From assembly GCA_036397135.1 (NCBI GenBank), contig DASWJN010000069.1, positions 1,500 through 65,499 of the forward strand: a DNA stretch of 64,000 bases. Reading direction: 5' to 3'. Every line of letters starts with the position of its first letter. Position 1 is the first letter of the stretch. The translations under genes were made by a program, and so were the position numbers. The DNA comes from Candidatus Methylomirabilota bacterium. GTDB taxonomy: Bacteria > Methylomirabilota > Methylomirabilia > Rokubacteriales > CSP1-6. Shown in pieces: positions 3,379 through 64,000 of the stretch. The notes under the pieces were generated by a model. That model did no database searches and had not been told where the DNA came from. It saw only the letters and a list, made by a program, of their open reading frames with translations.

Positions 3379-4606
3379 CGTGAGTGACGCCGGCCTCCGG
3401 CAGCGTCCGTGGCGGGCGGTCGCGGCAGCCACCGCGCTCAACCTGCCGCTCGGCTCGCTCTACGCGTTCAGCGTGTTCCTGAAACCGCTCGAGACCCTGC
3501 TGGCGCTGAGCCGCGCCGACCTCGCGCTCGTCTTTGCCCTCGCCGCCGCCGGGTTCGGCGCCGGCATGAACCTCGCGCCCCACGTCTACGGCCTCGCGTC
3601 CACCCCGGCGCTGCTGCTGGGCTGCGCGGTCGCGAGCAGCCTGGGCATCGCGCTCGCCGCCACGGCGGGCGGCCTGGTTCAGCTCGCGCTCGGCTACGGC
3701 GTGCTCTTCGGCGTCGGCGGCGGCGCGGCCTACATCCTCGTGCAGCAGGCCGTGAACCTGGCGGTGACGCGCCGCCACGGCCTGGTGAACGGCTACGTCG
3801 TGGCGCTGTACCCGGCCGGCGCCATGATCGCCGCGCCCCTGTTCGGGTGGGCCGTCCGCGAGCTGGGCGTCCGCGTGACGCTCGGCGGACTCGCGACCGC
3901 GCTGGCCGTCACCGGCGCGACGAGCGCGTGGCTGATCGCGCAGTCGGGCGTCACGCTGGCGGCGGCCGGCGCGGCCGCGGTGCCGGACGCTCGAGAGCGA
4001 CGCCGGACGGTGTTCTGGCGGCTGTGGCTCGTCTTCTTCCTGGCGGCGTCCGCCGGGCTGATGGTGCTCAGCCAGGCTGCCGGCATCATCACGGCCTACG
4101 GCGGCGCGACCGCGCTGGCGGTCTATGGCACGACGTTCATCGCCGGCACGATCGCCGCCGCCCGGCTGGCGGGCGGCTGGATGGTCGACTGGCTGAGCAT
4201 TCCCACGCTGGCTGCCGGCGCCCACGCCGTCGCGCTCGCGGGCAACGTGGCGCTGACGCTGTGGCCGGGCCCCGGCGTGTCCGTGCTCGCGCTGGCGCTG
4301 GTGGGACTGGGCTACGGGTTGATCTCCGGCGTCACGGCGGCGGCGGTGGCCGTCTACTGGCGGCGGGCGCTGTACGGGCGCATGGCCAGCCGGATCTACC
4401 TGGCGTGGTGCGCCGCCGCCGTCGTCCTGCCGATCGCCGCCGGCCGCCTGTTCGACCTGACCCAGGGCTATGCCACGGCAGTCCTGATCGCCGCCGGGGG
4501 CAACGTCCTGGGCGTCCTCGTGGCGCTGGGGCTGCCCCGCGAGCGCGCGGCTCGAACCCAGGCCGAGCCCCGGTCGGGCCAGGCGGCGTCGCCGGCCGCC
4601 CGCTGA
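3344..4606 (+). CDS. MFS transporter (oxalate/formate antiporter-like)
   Basis: 12-TM hydrophobic profile. ATG 3344 overlaps the divergent VOC start region; an alternative GTG at 3380 is possible. Confidence 0.75.
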   Translation: MSGCAEYTLPAIVSDAGLRQRPWRAVAAATALNLPLGSLYAFSVFLKPLETLLALSRADLALVFALAAAGFGAGMNLAPHVYGLASTPALLLGCAVASSLGIALAATAGGLVQLALGYGVLFGVGGGAAYILVQQAVNLAVTRRHGLVNGYVVALYPAGAMIAAPLFGWAVRELGVRVTLGGLATALAVTGATSAWLIAQSGVTLAAAGAAAVPDARERRRTVFWRLWLVFFLAASAGLMVLSQAAGIITAYGGATALAVYGTTFIAGTIAAARLAGGWMVDWLSIPTLAAGAHAVALAGNVALTLWPGPGVSVLALALVGLGYGLISGVTAAAVAVYWRRALYGRMASRIYLAWCAAAVVLPIAAGRLFDLTQGYATAVLIAAGGNVLGVLVALGLPRERAARTQAEPRSGQAASPAAR

Positions 4607-47423: not shown

Positions 47424-47852
47424 CTAACCCGTGAGCTCGAGCGCCAGCCCCTCGGCCCGAGCGGCGTCGTTCAGCCGCTCGTCGTAGGCCAGGAGACGTA
47501 CTTCCTCGCTCGCCTGCCGGTGGAGGTACAGGCACGACGCGAGCTGAACGGAATCGCCCGCCCGCAGCCGATGTCGTGTCAGCAGCGCAACCGCCTCCCT
47601 GGTGACTTCCTCGTCGAGCTCGATCAGAGCGATCGATCTGATGTCCTCGCGAAGCGAGCTCAACGCCCGGCCGAGGTGACTCGGCGAGAGGCCGCCCTCC
47701 CGGGAACGGCGAGCTAGGCCTGACGCAATCTCGACCTCGGACAGTCGGCTGGTGGCCACGGCCTGGCGCTCGAGGACCGCACGGACGGTGACGCTTCCCG
47801 GCTCGTCGACGTAACGCTTCACCAGCGCGCTGGCGTCGACATAGAGAATCAG
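47424..47852 (-). CDS. vapC: type II toxin VapC (PIN-domain ribonuclease); apparent CTG start in CTGA overlap with antitoxin stop
   Basis: Sequence LILYVDASALVKRYVDEPGS... with the PIN acidic residues D5, E (ELDEE), D (AGDSVQ) and D (AYDERL). The first in-frame ATG/GTG (47822) lies after the essential first Asp, so translation must begin at or before CTG 47850-47852. Confidence 0.7.
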   Translation of the reverse strand: MILYVDASALVKRYVDEPGSVTVRAVLERQAVATSRLSEVEIASGLARRSREGGLSPSHLGRALSSLREDIRSIALIELDEEVTREAVALLTRHRLRAGDSVQLASCLYLHRQASEEVRLLAYDERLNDAARAEGLALELTG

Positions 47853-48154
47853 ACGCGATCCTCCCGGTCCTCGACGATCGCCTCGGACACCGGGCGCCCG
47901 TTCAGTCTGATGGGGCGGAACGGCGCAAGTGGCCCCTTGGACGTCCGGGTCAAGCGGCCGAGGGCGACGAGCCGGTCGATCTCTCCCTGGCTCCCCGACC
48001 CCCCGAGGGAGACGGGCCGCAGCTCGGCCACCGGCTCACCCCGGTCGGTGATGACGATCGTCTGCCCCCTCCGGACCTCGCGGAGGTAGCGACCCAGCCG
48101 GGTCTTCAACTCCCGGACGCCGACCACGTTCTTCTTCGAGTTACGTGAACTCAT
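47849..48154 (-). CDS. vapB: type II antitoxin, Phd/YefM (VapB-type) family
   Basis: 101 aa, MSSRNSKKNVVGVRELKTRLGRYLREVRRGQTIVITDRGEPVAEL, the Phd/YefM fold signature. Upstream of vapC. Confidence 0.8.
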   Translation of the reverse strand: MSSRNSKKNVVGVRELKTRLGRYLREVRRGQTIVITDRGEPVAELRPVSLGGSGSQGEIDRLVALGRLTRTSKGPLAPFRPIRLNGRPVSEAIVEDREDRV

Positions 48155-48624: not shown

Positions 48625-49496
48625 TCAGGCGAGGTGCTTCCTGAAGAAGGCCATCGTCCGCTCCCAGGCCAGCCTGGCCGACGCCTCGTGGTAACGCGGC
48701 GTCGAGTTGTTGTGACAGCCATGCTGGGTGCCGGGATACATGTGCATCTCGTACTGGGCGCCGCTGGCCTTCAGGGCCGCCTCGAAGGCCGGCCACATCG
48801 CGTTGATGCGCTCGTCGCTCTCGGCGTACTGGATCAGCAGCGGCGCCTTGATGGCCGGCACTCGGGCCGTCTCGGCCGCCGCGCCGTAGAACGGGACGCC
48901 CGCGTTCAGCTCCGCGCCGAGCATGACCGCCAGGAAGTTCGTCGTGCTGCCGCCCCAGCAGAAACCCGTGACCCCGAGCTTGCCGGCGGACAGGGCGTGC
49001 CCCGCAGCTTGGCCTGGTCGAGGCCGGCCTGGAGGGCGCGGCCATCGTCGTCGTTGCCCGGGTGCCCGCCGACGGGCGACAACCCGTCGGGAGCGAGGGC
49101 CACGAACCCCTCGGTCGCGGCTCGGCGAGCCACGTCCTCGATGTACGGATTGAGCCCGCGGTTCTCGTGGATCACCCGCACGGCGGGGAACGGCCCCTGC
49201 ACATTCGGCTGCACCAGGTAGCCGCGCATGGTGCCGGAGGTGCCGCCGGGCGAGGGGTAGGTCACGTACCGGGCCTTGATCCGCTGGTCGGTGAAGGAGA
49301 TCGTCTGCGCCAGCGCATAGCGGGGCAACAGCGCCTGCGCCATGGCCAGCGCCGACGCGCCGCCGACCGTCAGCACGCCGGCCCGCTGCAAGAACTCGCG
49401 CCGGTCGATGCGCCCATGGCAGTACTCGTCGTAGAGATCGAACACGCGCCGGTCGATCTCGCTCTGGGTCAGCGCCGGCGCCACGTCCGGTGCCAC
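48625..49496 (-). pseudogene. dienelactone hydrolase family gene with -1 frameshift at a C/G run (~49000)
   Basis: N-terminal half (GTG 49496, MAPDVAPALTQSEIDRRVFDLYDEY...GLDQAKL) in one frame; C-terminal half (...GHALSAGKLGVTGFCWGG...HGC) in the -1 frame. The junction is at the run gtgCCCCgc, 49000-49003. Confidence 0.6.
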
Positions 49497-49551: not shown

Positions 49552-49830
49552 CTGATGAATCTCGTGAAACGTGGTGACGCCGGGGGCGGGGCACGGGGGC
49601 CCTGCGCGCGCCACGTCGATGGCGAGCCGTCGTCGCCGTGGCGCGCGCTGGGCTCGGCGAGCGCGCGATCGGCGATTCGACTCACTCCGGGCCAGCCCCC
49701 TTCAGGGGATGGGGGGCTCGCGCTCGCCGAGCCCGGCGCGAGCGTACGGCGACCGGCGAGCCATCCGTGGCGCGCGCAGGGCTCCCGTGCCCCGCCCCCG
49801 GCGTCACCGGATTCCACGAGAGTCATTAGC
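49552..49830. mobile_element. MITE-like ~280-bp hairpin element, copy A (~65-bp terminal inverted repeats)
   Basis: Near-identical to 61654-61934. Termini ATGAATCTCGTGAAACGTGGTGACGCCGGGGGCGGGGCACGGGGGCCCTGCGCGCGCCACG ... CGTGGCGCGCGCAGGGCTCCCGTGCCCCGCCCCCGGCGTCACCGGATTCCACGAGAGTCATTAGC. The right end CATTAGC supplies the TAA stop (49826-49828) of the adjacent gene. Confidence 0.8.
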
Positions 49831-50563
49831 TCACGGCAGGCGCGACGGAGATGCCACGGGCGCCCGTCTTGTCGATCGCGCGGGCGACGAGCCCCGACGC
49901 CTTCGCGTCCTCGACGACGCGCCGGAGGTAGGCGAGGCCCGCGTCGCGGCCCTTGGGCACGGCGATGGACTGCTGGACGCCCATGAAGCGCCCCTCGACG
50001 ATGCGCGATCCGGGCAGCGCCGGGGCCCGGTCCAGCAGGGCCTGCGTCAGGCCGGCGAGGGCCTCGACCTTGCCCGTCACCAGCAGGTCGAACGCCGAGT
50101 CGCCCCCCGGCGTCGACACGAGCTGCGCCCGCCTGAGATTGCGGCTCAGGAACAGCTCGTAGTTGGCACGGGCGGGCGCCGCGACGCGCACGCCCTCGCG
50201 GTCCACGTCCGCCGCCGTGCGCAGCGGTGAGTTGCCGGACACGAGATAGGTCGCCTCGATCTCGAGGTACGCCGCGGTGAAGCTCATCAGCGCCTCGCGC
50301 TGCGGATCGGAGCCGAGGAACGCGATGTCCCACATCCCGGCCGGGGCGGCGTCGCCCATGACGGCGACGCTGTCGAAGGCGACGATCTCGACGGGCACGC
50401 CGAGCCGCCGGCCCAGCTCCTGCGCCAGGTCGACCGCCACGCCGCGCGACTCCCCGGTGGCCCGGTCCTTGGTGGCGAGGATGAAATTCCCGTAGTTGAT
50501 CCCGGCGCGCAGCTTCCCGGTCGGGGCGAGGTCGGCGCGAACGGCGGGCGTGATGTCCGTCAT
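49826..50563 (-). CDS. transporter substrate-binding domain protein (PBP family 3-like), no signal peptide detected
   Basis: 245 aa, MTDITPAVRADLAPTGKLRAGINYGNFILATKD... Its stop codon lies inside the MITE terminus. Confidence 0.6.
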   Translation of the reverse strand: MTDITPAVRADLAPTGKLRAGINYGNFILATKDRATGESRGVAVDLAQELGRRLGVPVEIVAFDSVAVMGDAAPAGMWDIAFLGSDPQREALMSFTAAYLEIEATYLVSGNSPLRTAADVDREGVRVAAPARANYELFLSRNLRRAQLVSTPGGDSAFDLLVTGKVEALAGLTQALLDRAPALPGSRIVEGRFMGVQQSIAVPKGRDAGLAYLRRVVEDAKASGLVARAIDKTGARGISVAPAVS

Positions 50564-60129: not shown

Positions 60130-61329
60130 TTACTCGGGCTGGCCGGCCTCAGGGACGTCCTCGACCAGCACCTCGAAATCCACCAGGCGCCGCACGACGG
60201 CGCGGTCGACCTCGAGCCCCGACTCGGCGGCGATCGCGGCCAGCGCCGACCGGGTGGGACGACCGTCGAAGTGGTGGAGGACGTCGCCGAGCGTCCGGGG
60301 AATCACGAGGGGATCGTAGGCCCGGTAGGCGGTCACGCGCAGCCGGTCGGGACCGAGGGGCGCGATCTGCACGGGGCCGACCCGCAGGCGGGCCGGCAAC
60401 GCCTCGGAGCGCAGCGCCCGGCAGGTTTCTTTCACGAGCGCCGCGGCCAGCTCGATCTCGGCGCCCCCCACGCGGGTGACGTCGCTCCAGCTGAAGCGCT
60501 CGACGAGCCGGGCCGACGCCGCATAGAACTCGCGCTCCCGGCCCGCGTAGCGTCCCCAGGCCGCCCGGTGTCGACCGGCGTCCGGCACGCCGTCGAGGTC
60601 GGCGGCCGACAGCCGCGGACCGGTGTCGCGGTCGGGCGGGACGACGATCCGCTCGAGGGCGCCGACGCCCGGGTTCAACTGCAGGACACAATGCGCCACC
60701 AGCGACCGCTCGACGGCCTCCAGCAGGTGGCGGAGCGCGGTCCAGAAGCGATGGCCGACCGTTCCGCGCACGTACTTGCAGAACCACGTCGTGCACGCCG
60801 ACTGGCGGTGGCGCCAGATGCCGCACGTCCCCGTGTCGGGCCGGTAGTGCGGGCAGCGCATCGCGACGCTCCGGCCGAAGGCGTCGGCGGCGTTCCGGTA
60901 GAGCAGGCCATAGGCCGGCGGCTGCGCGAGGCCGGCCGGGGTGACGCCCACCCCCGCCGCGATACGGGCCTCGACCGACGCGCGTCCGGCCGCGGACTCG
61001 GGCGCCCGGTCGAGCAGGATTCGGCCCACGAGAAAGTTGGGCAGGGCCGGCACGTACGTGCAGCACTTGATGCGGGGATCGAAGAAGAGCTCCCCGCCCG
61101 CGACCGGGTGGCGGTCCCTCCCCGCCGCCGGGGTCGGAGGCGGGGCAAGCATGGCGCAGCGGTCGCACGTCGCCTCGGACTCGGCGGGGATGGCGCCCCC
61201 GACGAGGGCCTCGATCCACGGCCGGTACAGCAGCGGGAGCGCGGCCCCCTCCGGGGGACCGCCGGGCCCCGGTGCCGGGCCGCGCCTGCGCGCGTCCCGA
61301 TCACCGGTTCCCGTGGTCCCGCGACTCAC
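60130..61329 (-). CDS. Cys-rich protein of the YkgJ/FliB (CxxCxxCC, PF03692-like; includes flagellin lysine-N-methylase FliB) family
   Basis: GTG (RC 61327-61329) 8 nt after the small-ORF stop. Cys clusters CDRC...KCCTYVPALP and CPHYRPDTGTCGIWRHRQSACTTWFC (compare FliB CPFLDEDRLCSIHKTFGGDALCSTC..YP and family C.IY..RP..CR.FP). The track ORF upstream of 61329 is a translation of the MITE. Confidence 0.6.
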   Translation of the reverse strand: MSRGTTGTGDRDARRRGPAPGPGGPPEGAALPLLYRPWIEALVGGAIPAESEATCDRCAMLAPPPTPAAGRDRHPVAGGELFFDPRIKCCTYVPALPNFLVGRILLDRAPESAAGRASVEARIAAGVGVTPAGLAQPPAYGLLYRNAADAFGRSVAMRCPHYRPDTGTCGIWRHRQSACTTWFCKYVRGTVGHRFWTALRHLLEAVERSLVAHCVLQLNPGVGALERIVVPPDRDTGPRLSAADLDGVPDAGRHRAAWGRYAGREREFYAASARLVERFSWSDVTRVGGAEIELAAALVKETCRALRSEALPARLRVGPVQIAPLGPDRLRVTAYRAYDPLVIPRTLGDVLHHFDGRPTRSALAAIAAESGLEVDRAVVRRLVDFEVLVEDVPEAGQPE

Positions 61330-61337
61330 GACACCAT

Positions 61338-61451
61338 CTACTTGTTGAGCCTGGTCGCGGAGAGTCCGCCCTTGACCGAGCCGCCCTTGGTGACCTTCAG
61401 GTCCGAGAGCTTGACCTTCTTCTGGCCGCCCTTGCCTTTCGTCGACGCCAT
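61338..61451 (-). CDS. small Lys-rich protein (37 aa, KGG-motif-like): MASTKGKGGQKKVKLSDLKVTKGGSVKGGLSATRLNK
   Basis: GGAGGG SD 6 nt upstream of the ATG. An extended -10 promoter lies ~30 nt further upstream. 9 Lys in 37 aa. Tightly coupled (8-nt gap) to the downstream FliB-family gene. Confidence 0.55.
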   Translation of the reverse strand: MASTKGKGGQKKVKLSDLKVTKGGSVKGGLSATRLNK

Positions 61452-61487
61452 CGCACGCCCTCCACGGTAGGGTTTCGGTCGGGCGGC

Positions 61488-61493
61488 ATTCTA
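61488..61493 (-). promoter_or_regulatory. extended -10 promoter element cTGcTAGAAT for the small-peptide operon
   Basis: On the minus strand, ...TTCTGCTAGAATGCCGCCCGACCGAAACCCTACCGTGGAGGGCGTGCG-ATG. It has TGn plus a TAGAAT hexamer. The SD GGAGGG follows. Confidence 0.4.
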
Positions 61494-61653
61494 GCAGAAC
61501 CTCGATGCCTTCGTGTCGGCCAGGGCTCCGCGAGCGTCGGCTATTGTGCGTGGGTGGCCAGCGTCGACTGGAGGACCGCGTCCACCCGCAGCCCGGCGAC
61601 GAAGGCGCCGAGCTCGACCGCCAGCGCCGCCGGGCGGCTCTTGACACAGCGAC

Positions 61654-61934
61654 GCTAATGAATCTCGTGAAACGTGGTGACGCCGGGGGCGGGGCACGGG
61701 GGCCCTGCGCGCGCCACGTCGATGGCGAGCCGTCGTCGCCGTTGCGAGCGCAGGGCTCGGCGAGCGCGCGATCGGCGATCCGACTCACTCCGGGCCAGCC
61801 CCCTTCAGGGGGAGGGGGGGCTCGCGCTCGCCGAGCCCGGAGCGAGCGTACGGCGACCGGCGAGCCATCCGTGGCGCGCGCAGGGCCCCCGTGCCCCGCC
61901 CCCGGCGTCACCGGATTCCACGAGATTCATTAGC
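61654..61934. mobile_element. MITE-like ~280-bp hairpin element, copy B
   Basis: ~95% identical to 49552-49830. Termini GCTAATGAATCTCGTGAAACGTGGTGACGCC... and ...GGCGTCACCGGATTCCACGAGATTCATTAGC. The right terminus supplies the TAA stop (61930-61932) of the esterase gene. Confidence 0.8.
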
Positions 61935-62967
61935 CGAGACGCCGGCGCAGGTAGTCGGCAATCTCCAGCGTGCAGGCCATGCCCTGCGGGATGGCCCTGG
62001 TCAGCATCACGAATGCGTGGATCTGGCCCGGGTACTCGCGGGAGACCACGTCCACGCCGGCCTTGCGCAGGCGATCGCCGTAGGCGCGGCCCTCGTCGCG
62101 CAGCGGATCGAAGCCGGCGGTGACGATCAAGGTCGGCGGCTGGCCGGCGAGGCTCGGCGCGCGCAGGGGAGAGGCACGCAGGTCGGCCTTGTCCATCTCG
62201 CCCCTGAGATATTGCTCCGTGTACCAGACGATGCGGTCGCGCGGGATCACGTGACCGTCCGCCAGGTCCCGGTGCGAGTCCGTGTCGAGCGAGAAGTCGA
62301 CAGCGGGGTAGATGAGGGCCTGGCACGTGGGCACGGGCGTGCCGCCGGCGGCGGCGAGCTGCGAGACGACCGCCGCGAGGTTGCCCCCGGCCGAGTCGCC
62401 GGCCACGGCCACGCGGGCGGGGTCGGCGCCGAGCTCGCCTCCGCGGGCCCGGAGCCACCGATAGGCCGCCACGCAGTCCTCGACGGCGGCCGGGAACTTG
62501 TGCTCGGGCGCCAGCCGGTAGTCCACGGCGACGACGAGCGCGCCCGCGTGCCGGGCCAGCCGCGCACAGACCCCATGATGGGTCTCGAGGTCCCCCTGCA
62601 CCCAGCCACCGCCGTGGAAATACAGCACGGCGGGCGGCGGCGGCCCCGCGGCGCCCGGGCCGTAGACCCGCGCCGGGATCTCGCCGGCGGGCCCCGGGAT
62701 GCCGATGTCCTCGACGCGCGGCAATGGCGGCGCCGGCTCGTCCATCAGCGTCACCATGGTCCGGAGTTGCTGGCGCAGCTCCGGCAACGGCGGAAAGTAG
62801 CCCGGCACGCGGATCGACTTGACGAACTCACCGACGATCTGGGCCTTGGGGTCCATCGTGCGGCTGCCCAGGCGGATGCGGTGACCGTCGAGGAAGCGCA
62901 GCGCCTCCTCCTCGCTCATCGCCGTGTGCGACAGCTCCAGCGGCGGATGCGAGCGTGGCTGGCTCAT
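61930..62967 (-). CDS. alpha/beta hydrolase, HSL-family esterase/lipase
   Basis: LYFHGGGW (HGGG oxyanion motif), GDSAGG (nucleophile elbow), and HAF (catalytic His region). Confidence 0.85.
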   Translation of the reverse strand: MSQPRSHPPLELSHTAMSEEEALRFLDGHRIRLGSRTMDPKAQIVGEFVKSIRVPGYFPPLPELRQQLRTMVTLMDEPAPPLPRVEDIGIPGPAGEIPARVYGPGAAGPPPPAVLYFHGGGWVQGDLETHHGVCARLARHAGALVVAVDYRLAPEHKFPAAVEDCVAAYRWLRARGGELGADPARVAVAGDSAGGNLAAVVSQLAAAGGTPVPTCQALIYPAVDFSLDTDSHRDLADGHVIPRDRIVWYTEQYLRGEMDKADLRASPLRAPSLAGQPPTLIVTAGFDPLRDEGRAYGDRLRKAGVDVVSREYPGQIHAFVMLTRAIPQGMACTLEIADYLRRRLG

Positions 62968-62974
62968 GCCGACG

Positions 62975-63535
62975 TCAGCGCTTCCGCTCGAGCTGCATGT
63001 CGATCTGCTTGAGGCGCTCGATGTCGGCGCGCAGGCGCTCGGCCTCGGCCTGCCGCACGGCCAGCTCCTGACGCGTGCGCGCCAGGTCGCCCTCGCGGCG
63101 TGTCAGCTCCTCGCGCAGCCGCAGCCGCTCGTCGCGCAGCCGGATCAGCTCGTCGCGCAAGCGGATGACCTCGTCCCGCAGCACCGTCGCCTCGGCGCGC
63201 AGGCGGGTTCCGCTCCTGCGCAGCCACGTCCCCTCGTCGCCCAGGGTGGCCAGCTCGTCGCGCAGCCGGGACACCTCTTCGCGCCGTCGCGTCAGCTCGG
63301 TCCGGGCCGTCAGCATCGCCGCCAGCGTGTCGCGGCTCTCCAGCACGCGCGGCGCCGCGCTGTCGTCGGGATAGCGCGCCAGGTACTGGTCGTACGATGC
63401 CACCGCCTCCTGCCAGGCGCCCTCGCGGGCCTGGCGGTCGGCCCGGGCGAGCAGGAGGGCGGGGCCGAGGACGGGCAGCGACGCGCACCCGGCCGTGGCC
63501 GCGAGCAGCAGCAGGGCGGTGAGCCGACGCCTCAT
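62975..63535 (-). CDS. lipoprotein with coiled-coil LRDE-repeat region
   Basis: MRRRLTALLLLAATAGC (lipobox LAATAG-C), then repeated VLRDEVIRLRDELIRLRDERLRLREEL heptad-like repeats. The DNA shows corresponding short tandem repeats. Confidence 0.65.
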   Translation of the reverse strand: MRRRLTALLLLAATAGCASLPVLGPALLLARADRQAREGAWQEAVASYDQYLARYPDDSAAPRVLESRDTLAAMLTARTELTRRREEVSRLRDELATLGDEGTWLRRSGTRLRAEATVLRDEVIRLRDELIRLRDERLRLREELTRREGDLARTRQELAVRQAEAERLRADIERLKQIDMQLERKR

Positions 63536-63701
63536 CGCTTGCCACCATCCTGGCCGCTGCCTGCCCCCCGCCGCGCGCCGGCGACGTCCACGGGCACACC
63601 TGTATCGCCACGCCCGCCGGGCTGTCAAGGCCGAAACCACCGAAGGCGACGCGAGGCGGGCATTGAGCGGCGGCCGCGGCTGCCGTATCGTGGCGGCAGC
63701 C

Positions 63702-63869
63702 ATGACGGCGCCCCCGGATCCCCTGGCCGAGTTCCGCCTCGACGGCGACGTCGCGGTCGTCACCGGCGGCGCCAGCGGCATCGGCCGTGTCGCGGCCGCC
63801 GCGTTCGCGGCCGCCGGCGCCCGGGTCGCGATCTTCGACGTGGCCGCGGCCGGCGGGGATGCCCAGTAG
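63702..63869 (+). pseudogene. truncated SDR-family oxidoreductase N-terminus (55 aa stub ending at TAG)
   Basis: MTAPPDPLAEFRLDGDVAVVTGGASGIGRVAAAAFAAAGARVAIFDVAAAGGDAQ*. It carries the Rossmann TGxxxGIG motif only; the next gene's ATG is 2 nt after the stop. Confidence 0.5.
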
Positions 63870-63871
63870 TC

Positions 63872-64000
63872 ATGGACGCATCGTTCCCGATCGTCAGGCG
63901 CCCCGCGCCCGGAAGGCGCACGCCGGTCCTGGTGAGCGTGCCCCACTACGGCACCGAACCGCTGCCCCACATCACCCGCGACGACTATTGCGAGCCCCGG
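63872..64000 (+). CDS. 5' end of a gene, possibly N-formylglutamate amidohydrolase (HutG-like) family; continues beyond window
   Basis: MDASFPIVRRPAPGRRTPVLVSVPHYGTEPLPHITRDDYCEPR. The VLVSVPHYGTE resembles the FGase N-terminal v.l..pHgGt motif. Confidence 0.35.
   Translation, partial: MDASFPIVRRPAPGRRTPVLVSVPHYGTEPLPHITRDDYCEPR

Follow-up and report, generated by a model that had tools for sequence, protein, structure and literature searches.

Transposable elements of the miniature inverted-repeat kind (MITEs) that duplicate a TA dinucleotide and fold end to end into a hairpin, such as RUP and Correia, are established in bacteria, and RUP of Streptococcus pneumoniae is mobilised together with IS630-Spn1 (PMC2229807). 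Insertion sequences (ISs) of the IS630 family target TA, duplicate it and prefer CTAG, according to a passage of PMC2170065 that cites Tenzen & Ohtsubo 1991. GTAG repetitive extragenic palindromic sequences (REPs) are reported to supply TAG stops to flanking open reading frames (ORFs), and tyrosine transposases with long terminal inverted repeats (TIRs) and dispersed TIR repeats exist as well (PMC3733652). In a 2024 review of prokaryotic MITEs, stop codons do not come up (PMC10969869), and our literature search returned no paper linking Rokubacteria with MITEs. Here we describe a repeat present twice (copies W1 and W2) in a 64-kb stretch of contig DASWJN010000069.1 of a Candidatus Methylomirabilota bacterium; this whole stretch of 64,000 nucleotides is called the window below. 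Both copies sit at the stop codon of a gene, and they are very probably copies of a non-autonomous DNA transposon, a MITE, which inserts at TA. The MITE family is new, while the kind of element is already familiar.

Like the ISs and MITEs of the IS630 family (RUP and IS630-Spn1, and in eukaryotes Stowaway and Tc1-mariner), the element has a TA target, a 2-bp duplication, the CTAG preference, TIRs, and short non-coding derivatives in many copies. It differs from them in that no cognate transposase was found for it, its TIRs are 64-65 nt long, its whole 272-273 nt form one covarying hairpin, its host belongs to an uncultured phylum with a 72% G+C genome, and its target coincides with stop codons. 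With Correia/NEMIS of Neisseria it shares end-to-end hairpin formation when transcribed, a position beside genes, and size variants arising by internal deletion (PMC2229807). On the other hand, 26-nt TIRs, an integration host factor site, promoter elements and RNase III processing are features of Correia/NEMIS, none of them shown for our element; Neisseria is AT-richer, no systematic stop-codon register is found in Correia/NEMIS, and the sequences are unrelated. The TA duplication is common to both. Chunjie (Geobacter) and Nezha (cyanobacteria), which measure about 130-235 bp, are, like our element, MITEs of bacteria that occur in size variants, but their termini and targets are different, and neither a family-wide stop register nor covariation over the whole length is reported for them in the literature compared. 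Fournier et al. reportedly found in 1993 that IS870 of Agrobacterium, of the IS630 family, targets CTAG and that the TAG at its junction serves as a stop codon. In IS870 that TAG closes the transposase's own ORF, whereas in our element the junction closes the ORF of a host gene.

Two nearly identical copies in the window fold end to end

W1 and W2 were recovered by a repeat finder as two direct-repeat blocks, 49552-49716 against 61655-61819 (96% identity) and 49696-49830 against 61800-61934 (94% identity). They are the only copies that a family profile hidden Markov model (HMM) finds over the 64 kb, and a 22-nt degenerate terminus pattern has four matches in the window, one per element end, where 0.03 would be expected by chance. 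Behind the target TA the terminus reads TA-ATGAnTCTCGTG..., and the apical region is the sole part of the element that confers an orientation. Folding gave a single end-to-end hairpin of about 125 pairs for each element. The energies obtained for RNA are -249.7 kcal/mol on the plus strand (z=-18.9) and -242.2 kcal/mol on the minus strand (z=-19.2), and for DNA -148.2 kcal/mol (z=-18.3). The G+C content of the window is 68-75% along its whole length. Rfam 15 had no match at gathering score over the window, and at permissive E-values the element gave only chance-level hits (E≥0.24).

Both stop codons fall inside the terminal ...TCATTAG of the copies, which on the gene strand reads ...NNC TAA TGA.... 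The initial annotation had described two copies of about 95% identity with TIRs of about 65 bp and a hairpin covering the whole element, each abutting the 3' end of a reverse-strand gene whose stop codon lies inside the terminus, and our measurements agree with it on all of these points (Table 1). Being shorter than 500 bp, non-coding, bounded by TIRs, flanked by a duplication that an empty site reveals, and dispersed in many copies, the element has the structural features by which MITEs are recognised.

Table 1. Features of the element and its surroundings. Positions are those of the window unless a fetched locus (L number) is given.
Feature	Coordinates	Strand	Remarks
W1 with flanking target bases, C-TG-[element]-TA-G	49552..49829	+	nhmmer 49553-49829, 219.7 bits
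W1 element proper, 272 nt, ATGAATCTCGTG...CACGAGAGTCAT, flanking TA excluded	49555..49826	+	stretch missing from the empty orthologous site
W1 left TIR arm, 64 nt, 89% complementary to the right arm	49552..49615	+	
W1 right TIR arm, 64 nt	49766..49829	+	
W1 left GGCGAGCC box, opposite 49755-49762, tandem G·A internal loop	49621..49628	+	GA columns unpaired, near-invariant
W1 right GGCGAGCC box	49755..49762	+	
W1 distal target copy, TA decayed to TG	49553..49554	.	TG is the commonest decay variant, 19/128 family ends
W1 proximal TA copy, first two bases of the solute-binding protein stop codon	49827..49828	.	
W2 with flanking target bases, C-TA-[element]-TA-G	61655..61933	+	nhmmer 61655-61933, 228.6 bits
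W2 element proper, 273 nt, flanking TA excluded	61658..61930	+	
W2 left TIR arm, 65 nt, 94% complementary to the right arm	61654..61718	+	
W2 right TIR arm, 65 nt	61870..61934	+	
W2 left GGCGAGCC box, tandem G·A loop with 61859-61866	61724..61731	+	
W2 right GGCGAGCC box	61859..61866	+	
W2 asymmetric apical region	61767..61820	+	near-invariant apex CCCCC-TTCA-GGGGG-A-GGGGGGG at 61799-61820
W2 distal TA copy of the duplicated target	61656..61657	.	
W2 proximal TA copy, within the esterase stop codon	61931..61932	.	
SBP_bac_3 solute-binding protein gene, 245 aa, upstream gene of W1	49826..50563	-	
TAA stop of the SBP_bac_3 gene, host TA plus terminal base of the element; plus-strand TTA	49826..49828	-	TAG in four orthologues, same column
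In-frame backup TGA supplied by W1 (TAA TGA)	49823..49825	-	
Abhydrolase_3 esterase gene, 345 aa, upstream gene of W2	61930..62967	-	
TAA stop of the esterase gene at the native C-terminus; plus-strand TTA	61930..61932	-	
In-frame backup TGA supplied by W2	61927..61929	-	
Miniature derivatives, 90-105 nt, little beyond two family-1 terminal arms	L066 5507-5615; L023 3050-3109; L037 4155-4245; L098 444-534		
Second-family copies	L040 5340-5700; L121 2100-2414; L069 2996-3299; L015 3646-3953; L122 1357-1627; L042 99-362; L136 1460-1755		

An empty site and 128 element ends indicate insertion at TA within CTAG

Loci were fetched either as matches to the repeat pattern or through their proteins (0.9 Mb in total), and the family counts given here refer to these loci. 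An orthologue of the solute-binding protein (SBP) that is 90% identical to it (P0123) lies in a syntenic locus (L142-L144), in which the SBP gene is followed by a dienelactone hydrolase (DLH) gene and the element is absent. The empty site reads ...GCGCGG TAG AATCCCGG (...GCGCGG TAG AATCCCGGTCCGAGCGGAGGA...), and the filled site in the window reads, on the gene strand, ...GTGAGC TA[ATGACTC...GATTCAT]CA GAATCCCGACCCGAGCGAAGGAGG..., that is GTGAGC TA[element]CA GAATCCCGA. When the element and one TA are removed from the window, the alignment with the empty site is restored across 190 nt, and TAG is invariant at the insertion column in four SBP orthologues. It follows that W1 entered the TA of a native TAG stop codon and duplicated this TA, the distal copy of which has since decayed to CA on the gene strand (TG on the plus strand).

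The same signature is seen throughout the family. At 128 distinct ends the two bases adjoining the terminus are TA in 78 cases (61%) and a one-base variant of it in 45 (TG 19, TC 11, CA 10, GA 5), so that 123 of the 128 ends carry one or the other. Outside the TA, the base at -1 is C in 119 ends (93%) and the base at -2 is G in 56%, while right ends mirror the left ones with a G after TA; the target is therefore CTAG with duplication of TA. The first base of the element itself is A in 97 ends and G in 31. Duplications of 3 bp (TAA/TTA) or 4 bp (CTAG) were considered and rejected, as the flanks are inverted, not direct, at those lengths.

Stop codons coincide with element ends across the family

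A frame reading into an element was accepted as clearly coding if it was open for at least 50 codons with G+C at the third codon position (GC3) of at least 0.85 and at the second (GC2) of at most 0.62. Such a frame was present at 49 of 125 ends. In 33 of these the boundary triplet is the stop codon (TAA 23, TAG 6, TGA 4); in another 9, in which the TA has decayed, the frame would run on for three bases to the TGA that the element itself provides, and only 7 ends show another register. The resulting 42 of 49, against an expectation of one third, corresponds to a binomial p=5e-14. Loci fetched without regard to the element show this register too, as the stop of a DUF1028 gene (L137) is TG+A at the boundary. 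A copy of a second family, described below, likewise forms a stop at its boundary (L136), and three copies situated between convergent genes close both of them. Free TA sites number 8,286 in the 0.9 Mb, and by the same coding test 4% of them lie in stop codons; the 157 free CTAG sites comprise 42 in stop codons (27%), 16 intragenic ones and 99 others. The window alone has 544 TA and 9 CTAG. The preference for CTAG thus often brings the element to stop codons.

Neither of the two upstream proteins in the window is altered. The esterase end ...YLRRRLG* is common to nearly all of 120 homologues, most of which have 345 aa; most SBP homologues have 245 aa, and the 245-aa SBP and 345-aa esterase homologues terminate at the same residue. 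As C-termini and lengths match those of homologues, neither the SBP nor the esterase is truncated or extended.

These findings support the initial annotation in viewing the repeats as MITEs whose insertion recreated the stop codon: the native stop in the empty site is TAG at exactly the insertion position, the site is colinear once the element and one TA are taken out, and the association with stops, which had been noticed at two copies, recurs throughout the family. Of the suggested TA/TTA target, TA is borne out by the empty site and the 128 ends, and the inverted flanks at 3 bp speak against TTA. One proposal needs amendment. The element was said to donate the TAA stop; it does provide the third base, A, and the backup TGA, but the TA is the host's own, duplicated on insertion. 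The copy number, for which a genome-wide search had been proposed, was assessed in the fetched loci, which hold 139 profile matches and the 128 distinct ends.

The hairpin is maintained by compensatory changes and its core is shared with a second family

We aligned 33 full-length copies (pairwise identity 66-97%, median 83%). Their consensus structure has 91 pairs, of which 37 show compensatory double changes, compared to 13.1±2.0 in shuffled alignments (0/500 reach 37) and 9-16 when partners are slid by 1-3 columns; 97.3% of cells are paired, compared to 91.7±0.2 in shuffles. The TIRs are conserved over the 33 copies, and conserved sequence is found in the outer ~30 nt, in the apex CCCCCnnnGGGGGATGGGGGG and, on each arm, in two GGCGAGC(C/G) boxes. 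With GGCGAGCC opposite GGCGAGCC, the boxes form tandem G·A internal loops. Covariation is free between the outer block and the first of the boxes, and variable sequence makes up the 5' half of the apical region. Within subfamilies there are 15 singleton compensated doubles versus 42 single changes, where by our own estimate about 0.6 would be expected by chance. The sole informative orthologous pair, L019 and L102, which have the same flanks, differs by 1 compensated, 4 wobble and 5 broken changes; thin as this evidence is, it suggests that propagating lineages rather than resident copies are under the constraint.

Two asymmetries accompany the fold. In the stems, the ratio of G·U to A·C cells is 69:26 once two G·U-majority columns are left out (p=1e-5, with no correction for relatedness), which points to the aligned strand, the plus strand of the window, as the one whose fold would matter. 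Among copies oriented by the profile, right ends abut the stop of an inward-reading gene in 36 of 74 cases and left ends in 13 of 65 (p=6e-4); W1 and W2 are both in the majority orientation. The favoured strand is then antisense to the upstream gene, which argues against a hairpin at the 3' end of the upstream mRNA as the object of selection.

A second family, found at six loci, resembles W2 in its inner ~225 nt, a stretch of ~79% identity that takes in the apex as well as the two G·A boxes. Its termini are different (TA-RCCCGGnnATTCRYGAAC...), the flanks are again of the CTA...TAG type and again at stop codons, and 3 of the 6 lie 8-10 nt from a family-1 copy. In MITEs it is normally the termini that are conserved, and it is unusual for two sets of termini to have one core in common.

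How the element may have come to stop codons

The mechanism that we propose is as follows. The element inserts at TA, strongly preferring 5'-CTAG-3', and duplicates the TA, as IS630/Tc1-mariner DDE transposases do. In a genome of 72% G+C, TA is scarce and about a quarter of the free CTAG sites are TAG stop codons. Insertion into such a stop would leave one TA on the gene, and every terminus presents a purine and then TGA (TA-ATGA...), by which the stop would be rebuilt as TAA or TAG followed by a second in-frame TGA, and therefore the protein would be left unchanged. Insertions into stop codons would be tolerated while those within genes or promoters would be purged, so that copies would accumulate at the 3' ends of genes. 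We infer that an IS630-type transposase would act in trans, that tolerance, not benefit, would explain the location, and that the long hairpin would matter for propagation of the element. Judging by the target-site signature, it is somewhat more probable than otherwise that the mobilising enzyme is of the IS630 type specifically. The element would then be a quantified example of a safe harbour for a transposon, in which base composition makes the TA/CTAG target coincide with stops and the termini regenerate the stop (TAA TGA); hundreds of copies per genome could accumulate in this way with proteins unchanged.

Several observations weigh against a MITE moved by such an enzyme. A cut-and-paste DDE mechanism predicts neither the G·U strand bias nor the orientation bias, and a covarying hairpin of 125 bp is not obviously needed by it. 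Searches of the fetched loci for pairs of these termini 400-4000 bp apart found no autonomous element, clustering of long ORFs over the 0.9 Mb gave no multicopy transposase family, and no DDE_3 transposase gene with matching TIRs was seen in these loci. For the TA duplication there is a single empty site of base precision, that of W1, which was also the only one recovered when reconstructed empty sites of 46 copies were blasted against all loci; no filled/empty pairs among close strains were obtained. For W2 an empty site could not be reconstructed, as the closest esterase relatives (L139, L140, L136) have a TGA stop and a diverged spacer; in other relatives (L132-L134) a ~400-bp deletion fuses a new C-terminus to the esterase, and so there is no W2 empty site there either. 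Moreover, in loci chosen for carrying elements, a stop lies at one end or both in 29 of 45 full-length copies, compared to 42 of 141 non-intragenic free CTAG sites (odds ratio 4.3, p=4.5e-5). This excess is greater than target preference can fully explain by itself. Any one of three causes could account for it: a benefit at 3' ends, a target preference that is extended, or the purging of insertions at promoters and in 5' regions.

A rival reading is that of a REPIN-like (REP doublet) or TIR-repeat hairpin, which a tyrosine HUH transposase (REP-associated, RAYT, or TIR-associated, TIRYT; IS200/IS605) would move in single-stranded form and insert next to CTA/TAG without true duplication. The compensatory changes that keep the hairpin over the whole element fit with this idea, and so do the G·U excess on one strand, which is expected with single-strand folding, the spacing of 8-10 nt between copies of the two families, which resembles REP clusters, and the presence in the apical loop of one copy of an IS of the IS110 family, which is known to target REPs. 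It is also in line with the GTAG REP termini reported to give TAG stops to flanking ORFs and with the long-TIR tyrosine transposases (PMC3733652). We nevertheless regard it as very unlikely. A symmetric CTAG site with a 2-bp duplication is not made by IS200/IS605-type elements, and REPs and REPINs of the RAYT kind have an unpaired GTAG tag and no target duplication, whereas the TIRs of our element pair to the last base (termini CTA(A/G)TGA), with no unpaired GTAG/CGTC tag or subterminal hairpin, and lie within a duplicated TA in CTAG. Its size of ~275 nt contrasts with 20-40 nt for REPs and ~100 nt for REPINs, and its deletion derivatives of 90-105 nt keep only the TIRs, which is MITE behaviour. 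No tyrosine transposase (RAYT/TIRYT) was noticed in the loci, to which no systematic Y1 HMM scan was applied. It is almost certain, too, that the element does not encode a small protein from its terminal ATG to its terminal TAG. One such frame is indeed open from the left-end ATG to the right-end TAG in W2 and about a dozen copies, but it is closed or shifted in most, W1 included; copy lengths (265-296 nt) differ by non-multiples of 3, the 91-aa translation has no homologue among 5.8 billion proteins, and by our own estimate a 90-codon frame would be open by chance in about 1 of 5 cases at this G+C. ORFs crossing the element were rejected as genes for these reasons, as the initial annotation had done with its six-frame ORFs.

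A benefit to the host, with the hairpin acting as a bidirectional terminator or as a 3' stabiliser or regulator of mRNA, might also keep copies at 3' ends, and this would be compatible with arrival by transposition; the initial annotation had offered selection as terminators as an alternative. Stop-codon occupancy above the free-CTAG expectation, an orientation that is not neutral, the conservation of a ~200-nt core (~79%) in a second family with other termini, and reports that MITE/REP hairpins stabilise or destabilise mRNAs (PMC3733652, PMC10969869) could all be read in this sense. A scan of 61300-62100 around W2 found, however, no promoter or terminator-like site and no U-tract, the element ending in CATTAG without a T run; because no U-tract follows the hairpin, the element does not qualify as an intrinsic terminator. 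In the majority orientation the upstream mRNA bears the strand on which wobbles become A·C mismatches, the L019/L102 pair has diverged in place mostly by uncompensated changes, and W1 sits in what is a 30-nt operon spacer in a relative, with the downstream hydrolase frameshifted, which looks like damage. Maintenance by host benefit therefore seems rather unlikely to us. A more novel reading, which arises mainly because the core is kept across two sets of termini, is that the ~200-nt core (G·A boxes, covarying stems and the CCCCCnnnGGGGGATGGGGGG apex) would be a functional, strand-specific structured nucleic acid carried by at least two sets of TA-targeting termini. Propagation might require it as a hairpin substrate in single-stranded form, or it might act at stop codons as a regulatory module of RNA or DNA. 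Such a function would explain the conservation across families, the compensated changes at the tips, the G·U bias, the orientation bias and the over-occupancy of stops, though we consider it decidedly improbable. Were the core functional, the family would be a natural vehicle spreading a structured module to the 3' ends of genes in a phylum without a cultured representative.

The family appears confined to Methylomirabilota/Rokubacteria

When one genome per species was scanned with the terminus pattern, at least 13 loci were found, and 7 of the 13, from five metagenome-assembled genomes (MAGs) of Methylomirabilota/Rokubacteria, hold full or partial elements at 66-80% identity. Contigs of Halobiforma, Halopiger, Haloechinothrix, Acidobacteriota, Chthoniobacterales and Myxococcota were discarded as hosts, since their matches span only 22-33 nt and were treated as chance. 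A metagenome scan gave at least 118 loci, many of the matches being at contig ends, which is expected because the repeat breaks assemblies. At least 49 copies have 230 nt or more, ten of them at 94-97% identity to W2; the family as a whole ranges over 66-97% identity and 260-290 nt, and 46 of the profile matches in the fetched loci are full length. The nearest homologues of the SBP and the esterase are labelled Rokubacteria/Methylomirabilota by their sources. As far as the scans show, the family is confined to this group. Neither viral contigs, searched with the terminus pattern, nor PLSDB plasmids, searched with the element, gave a match, and by the Rfam, plasmid and viral searches no described element is similar to it in sequence. 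Loci that were fetched through proteins and not through the repeat, 64.6 kb in all, contain 3 profile matches, a density near the window's 2 per 64 kb, and extrapolation suggests a copy number of the order of a hundred or more per genome. For the annotation of Rokubacteria and other high-G+C MAGs, the element explains why contigs recurrently break where genes end, why spurious ORFs run through the repeat and why there are TAA stops of an unusual kind, and it explains some of the changed C-termini and of the deletions beside it.

Two pairs of termini more than 400 bp apart were examined as possible autonomous parents and dismissed, as each encloses a nested IS. In L101 (1523-3259) a family-1 copy holds an IS110-family IS (DEDD_Tnp_IS110 + Transposase_20) in its apical C-run/G-run loop, and a non-coding leader of ~250 nt precedes the recombinase gene; the apical loop may be a specific target of this IS. 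In L034 (185-1865) an IS3-family element (OrfA/OrfB with an integrase-like OrfB, recognised by eye) is nested ~25 nt inside a copy of the hairpin element. Another pair of copies, L073 1356-1630 and L079 5555-5829, has right flanks that are 99% identical and left flanks that are unrelated, which suggests rearrangement or recombination at the element.

Genes adjoining the two copies

The distal end of each copy adjoins the 5' region of the next minus-strand gene, which is the DLH gene for W1 and a conserved 37-aa ORF for W2. The DLH gene (window 48625-49496, minus strand) is split over two frames; compared to its 311-aa orthologue in L142, ~12 codons are absent near 49000 and the start has moved to GTG. 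Either it is a pseudogene, possibly because the insertion disrupted the SBP-hydrolase operon in a polar manner, or there is an assembly error.

The 37-aa ORF (window 61338-61451, minus strand; MASTKGKGGQKKVKLSDLKVTKGGSVKGGLSATRLNK) has a good ribosome-binding site and occurs also in L132, where it is a called gene (4141-4254), and in L139. The gene after it encodes a B12-binding radical SAM protein in L132 and a Cys-rich protein without Pfam match in the window, and the product of the ORF may be a peptide precursor.

The deleted esterase of L132-L134 (P0001, 349 aa) has a unique C-terminus, ...LTLATPDT. Comparison of 4020-4060 of these loci with window 61540-61945 shows that ~400 bp are absent, namely the native stop, the element site and ~105 nt, and that the ORF is fused to downstream DNA; it looks as if the deletion took out an element. 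Upstream of the W2 esterase, window 63071-63321 holds a 21-nt periodic direct repeat in 8 copies within the ORF 62975..63970(-). The encoded segment is a coiled coil, LRDE-rich and heptad-like, which is conserved upstream of the L132 esterase. Finally, at window 47424-48154 on the minus strand there is a pair of small ORFs in an overlapping context, which, judged by eye only, resemble a PIN-type toxin (132 aa) and its antitoxin (101 aa).

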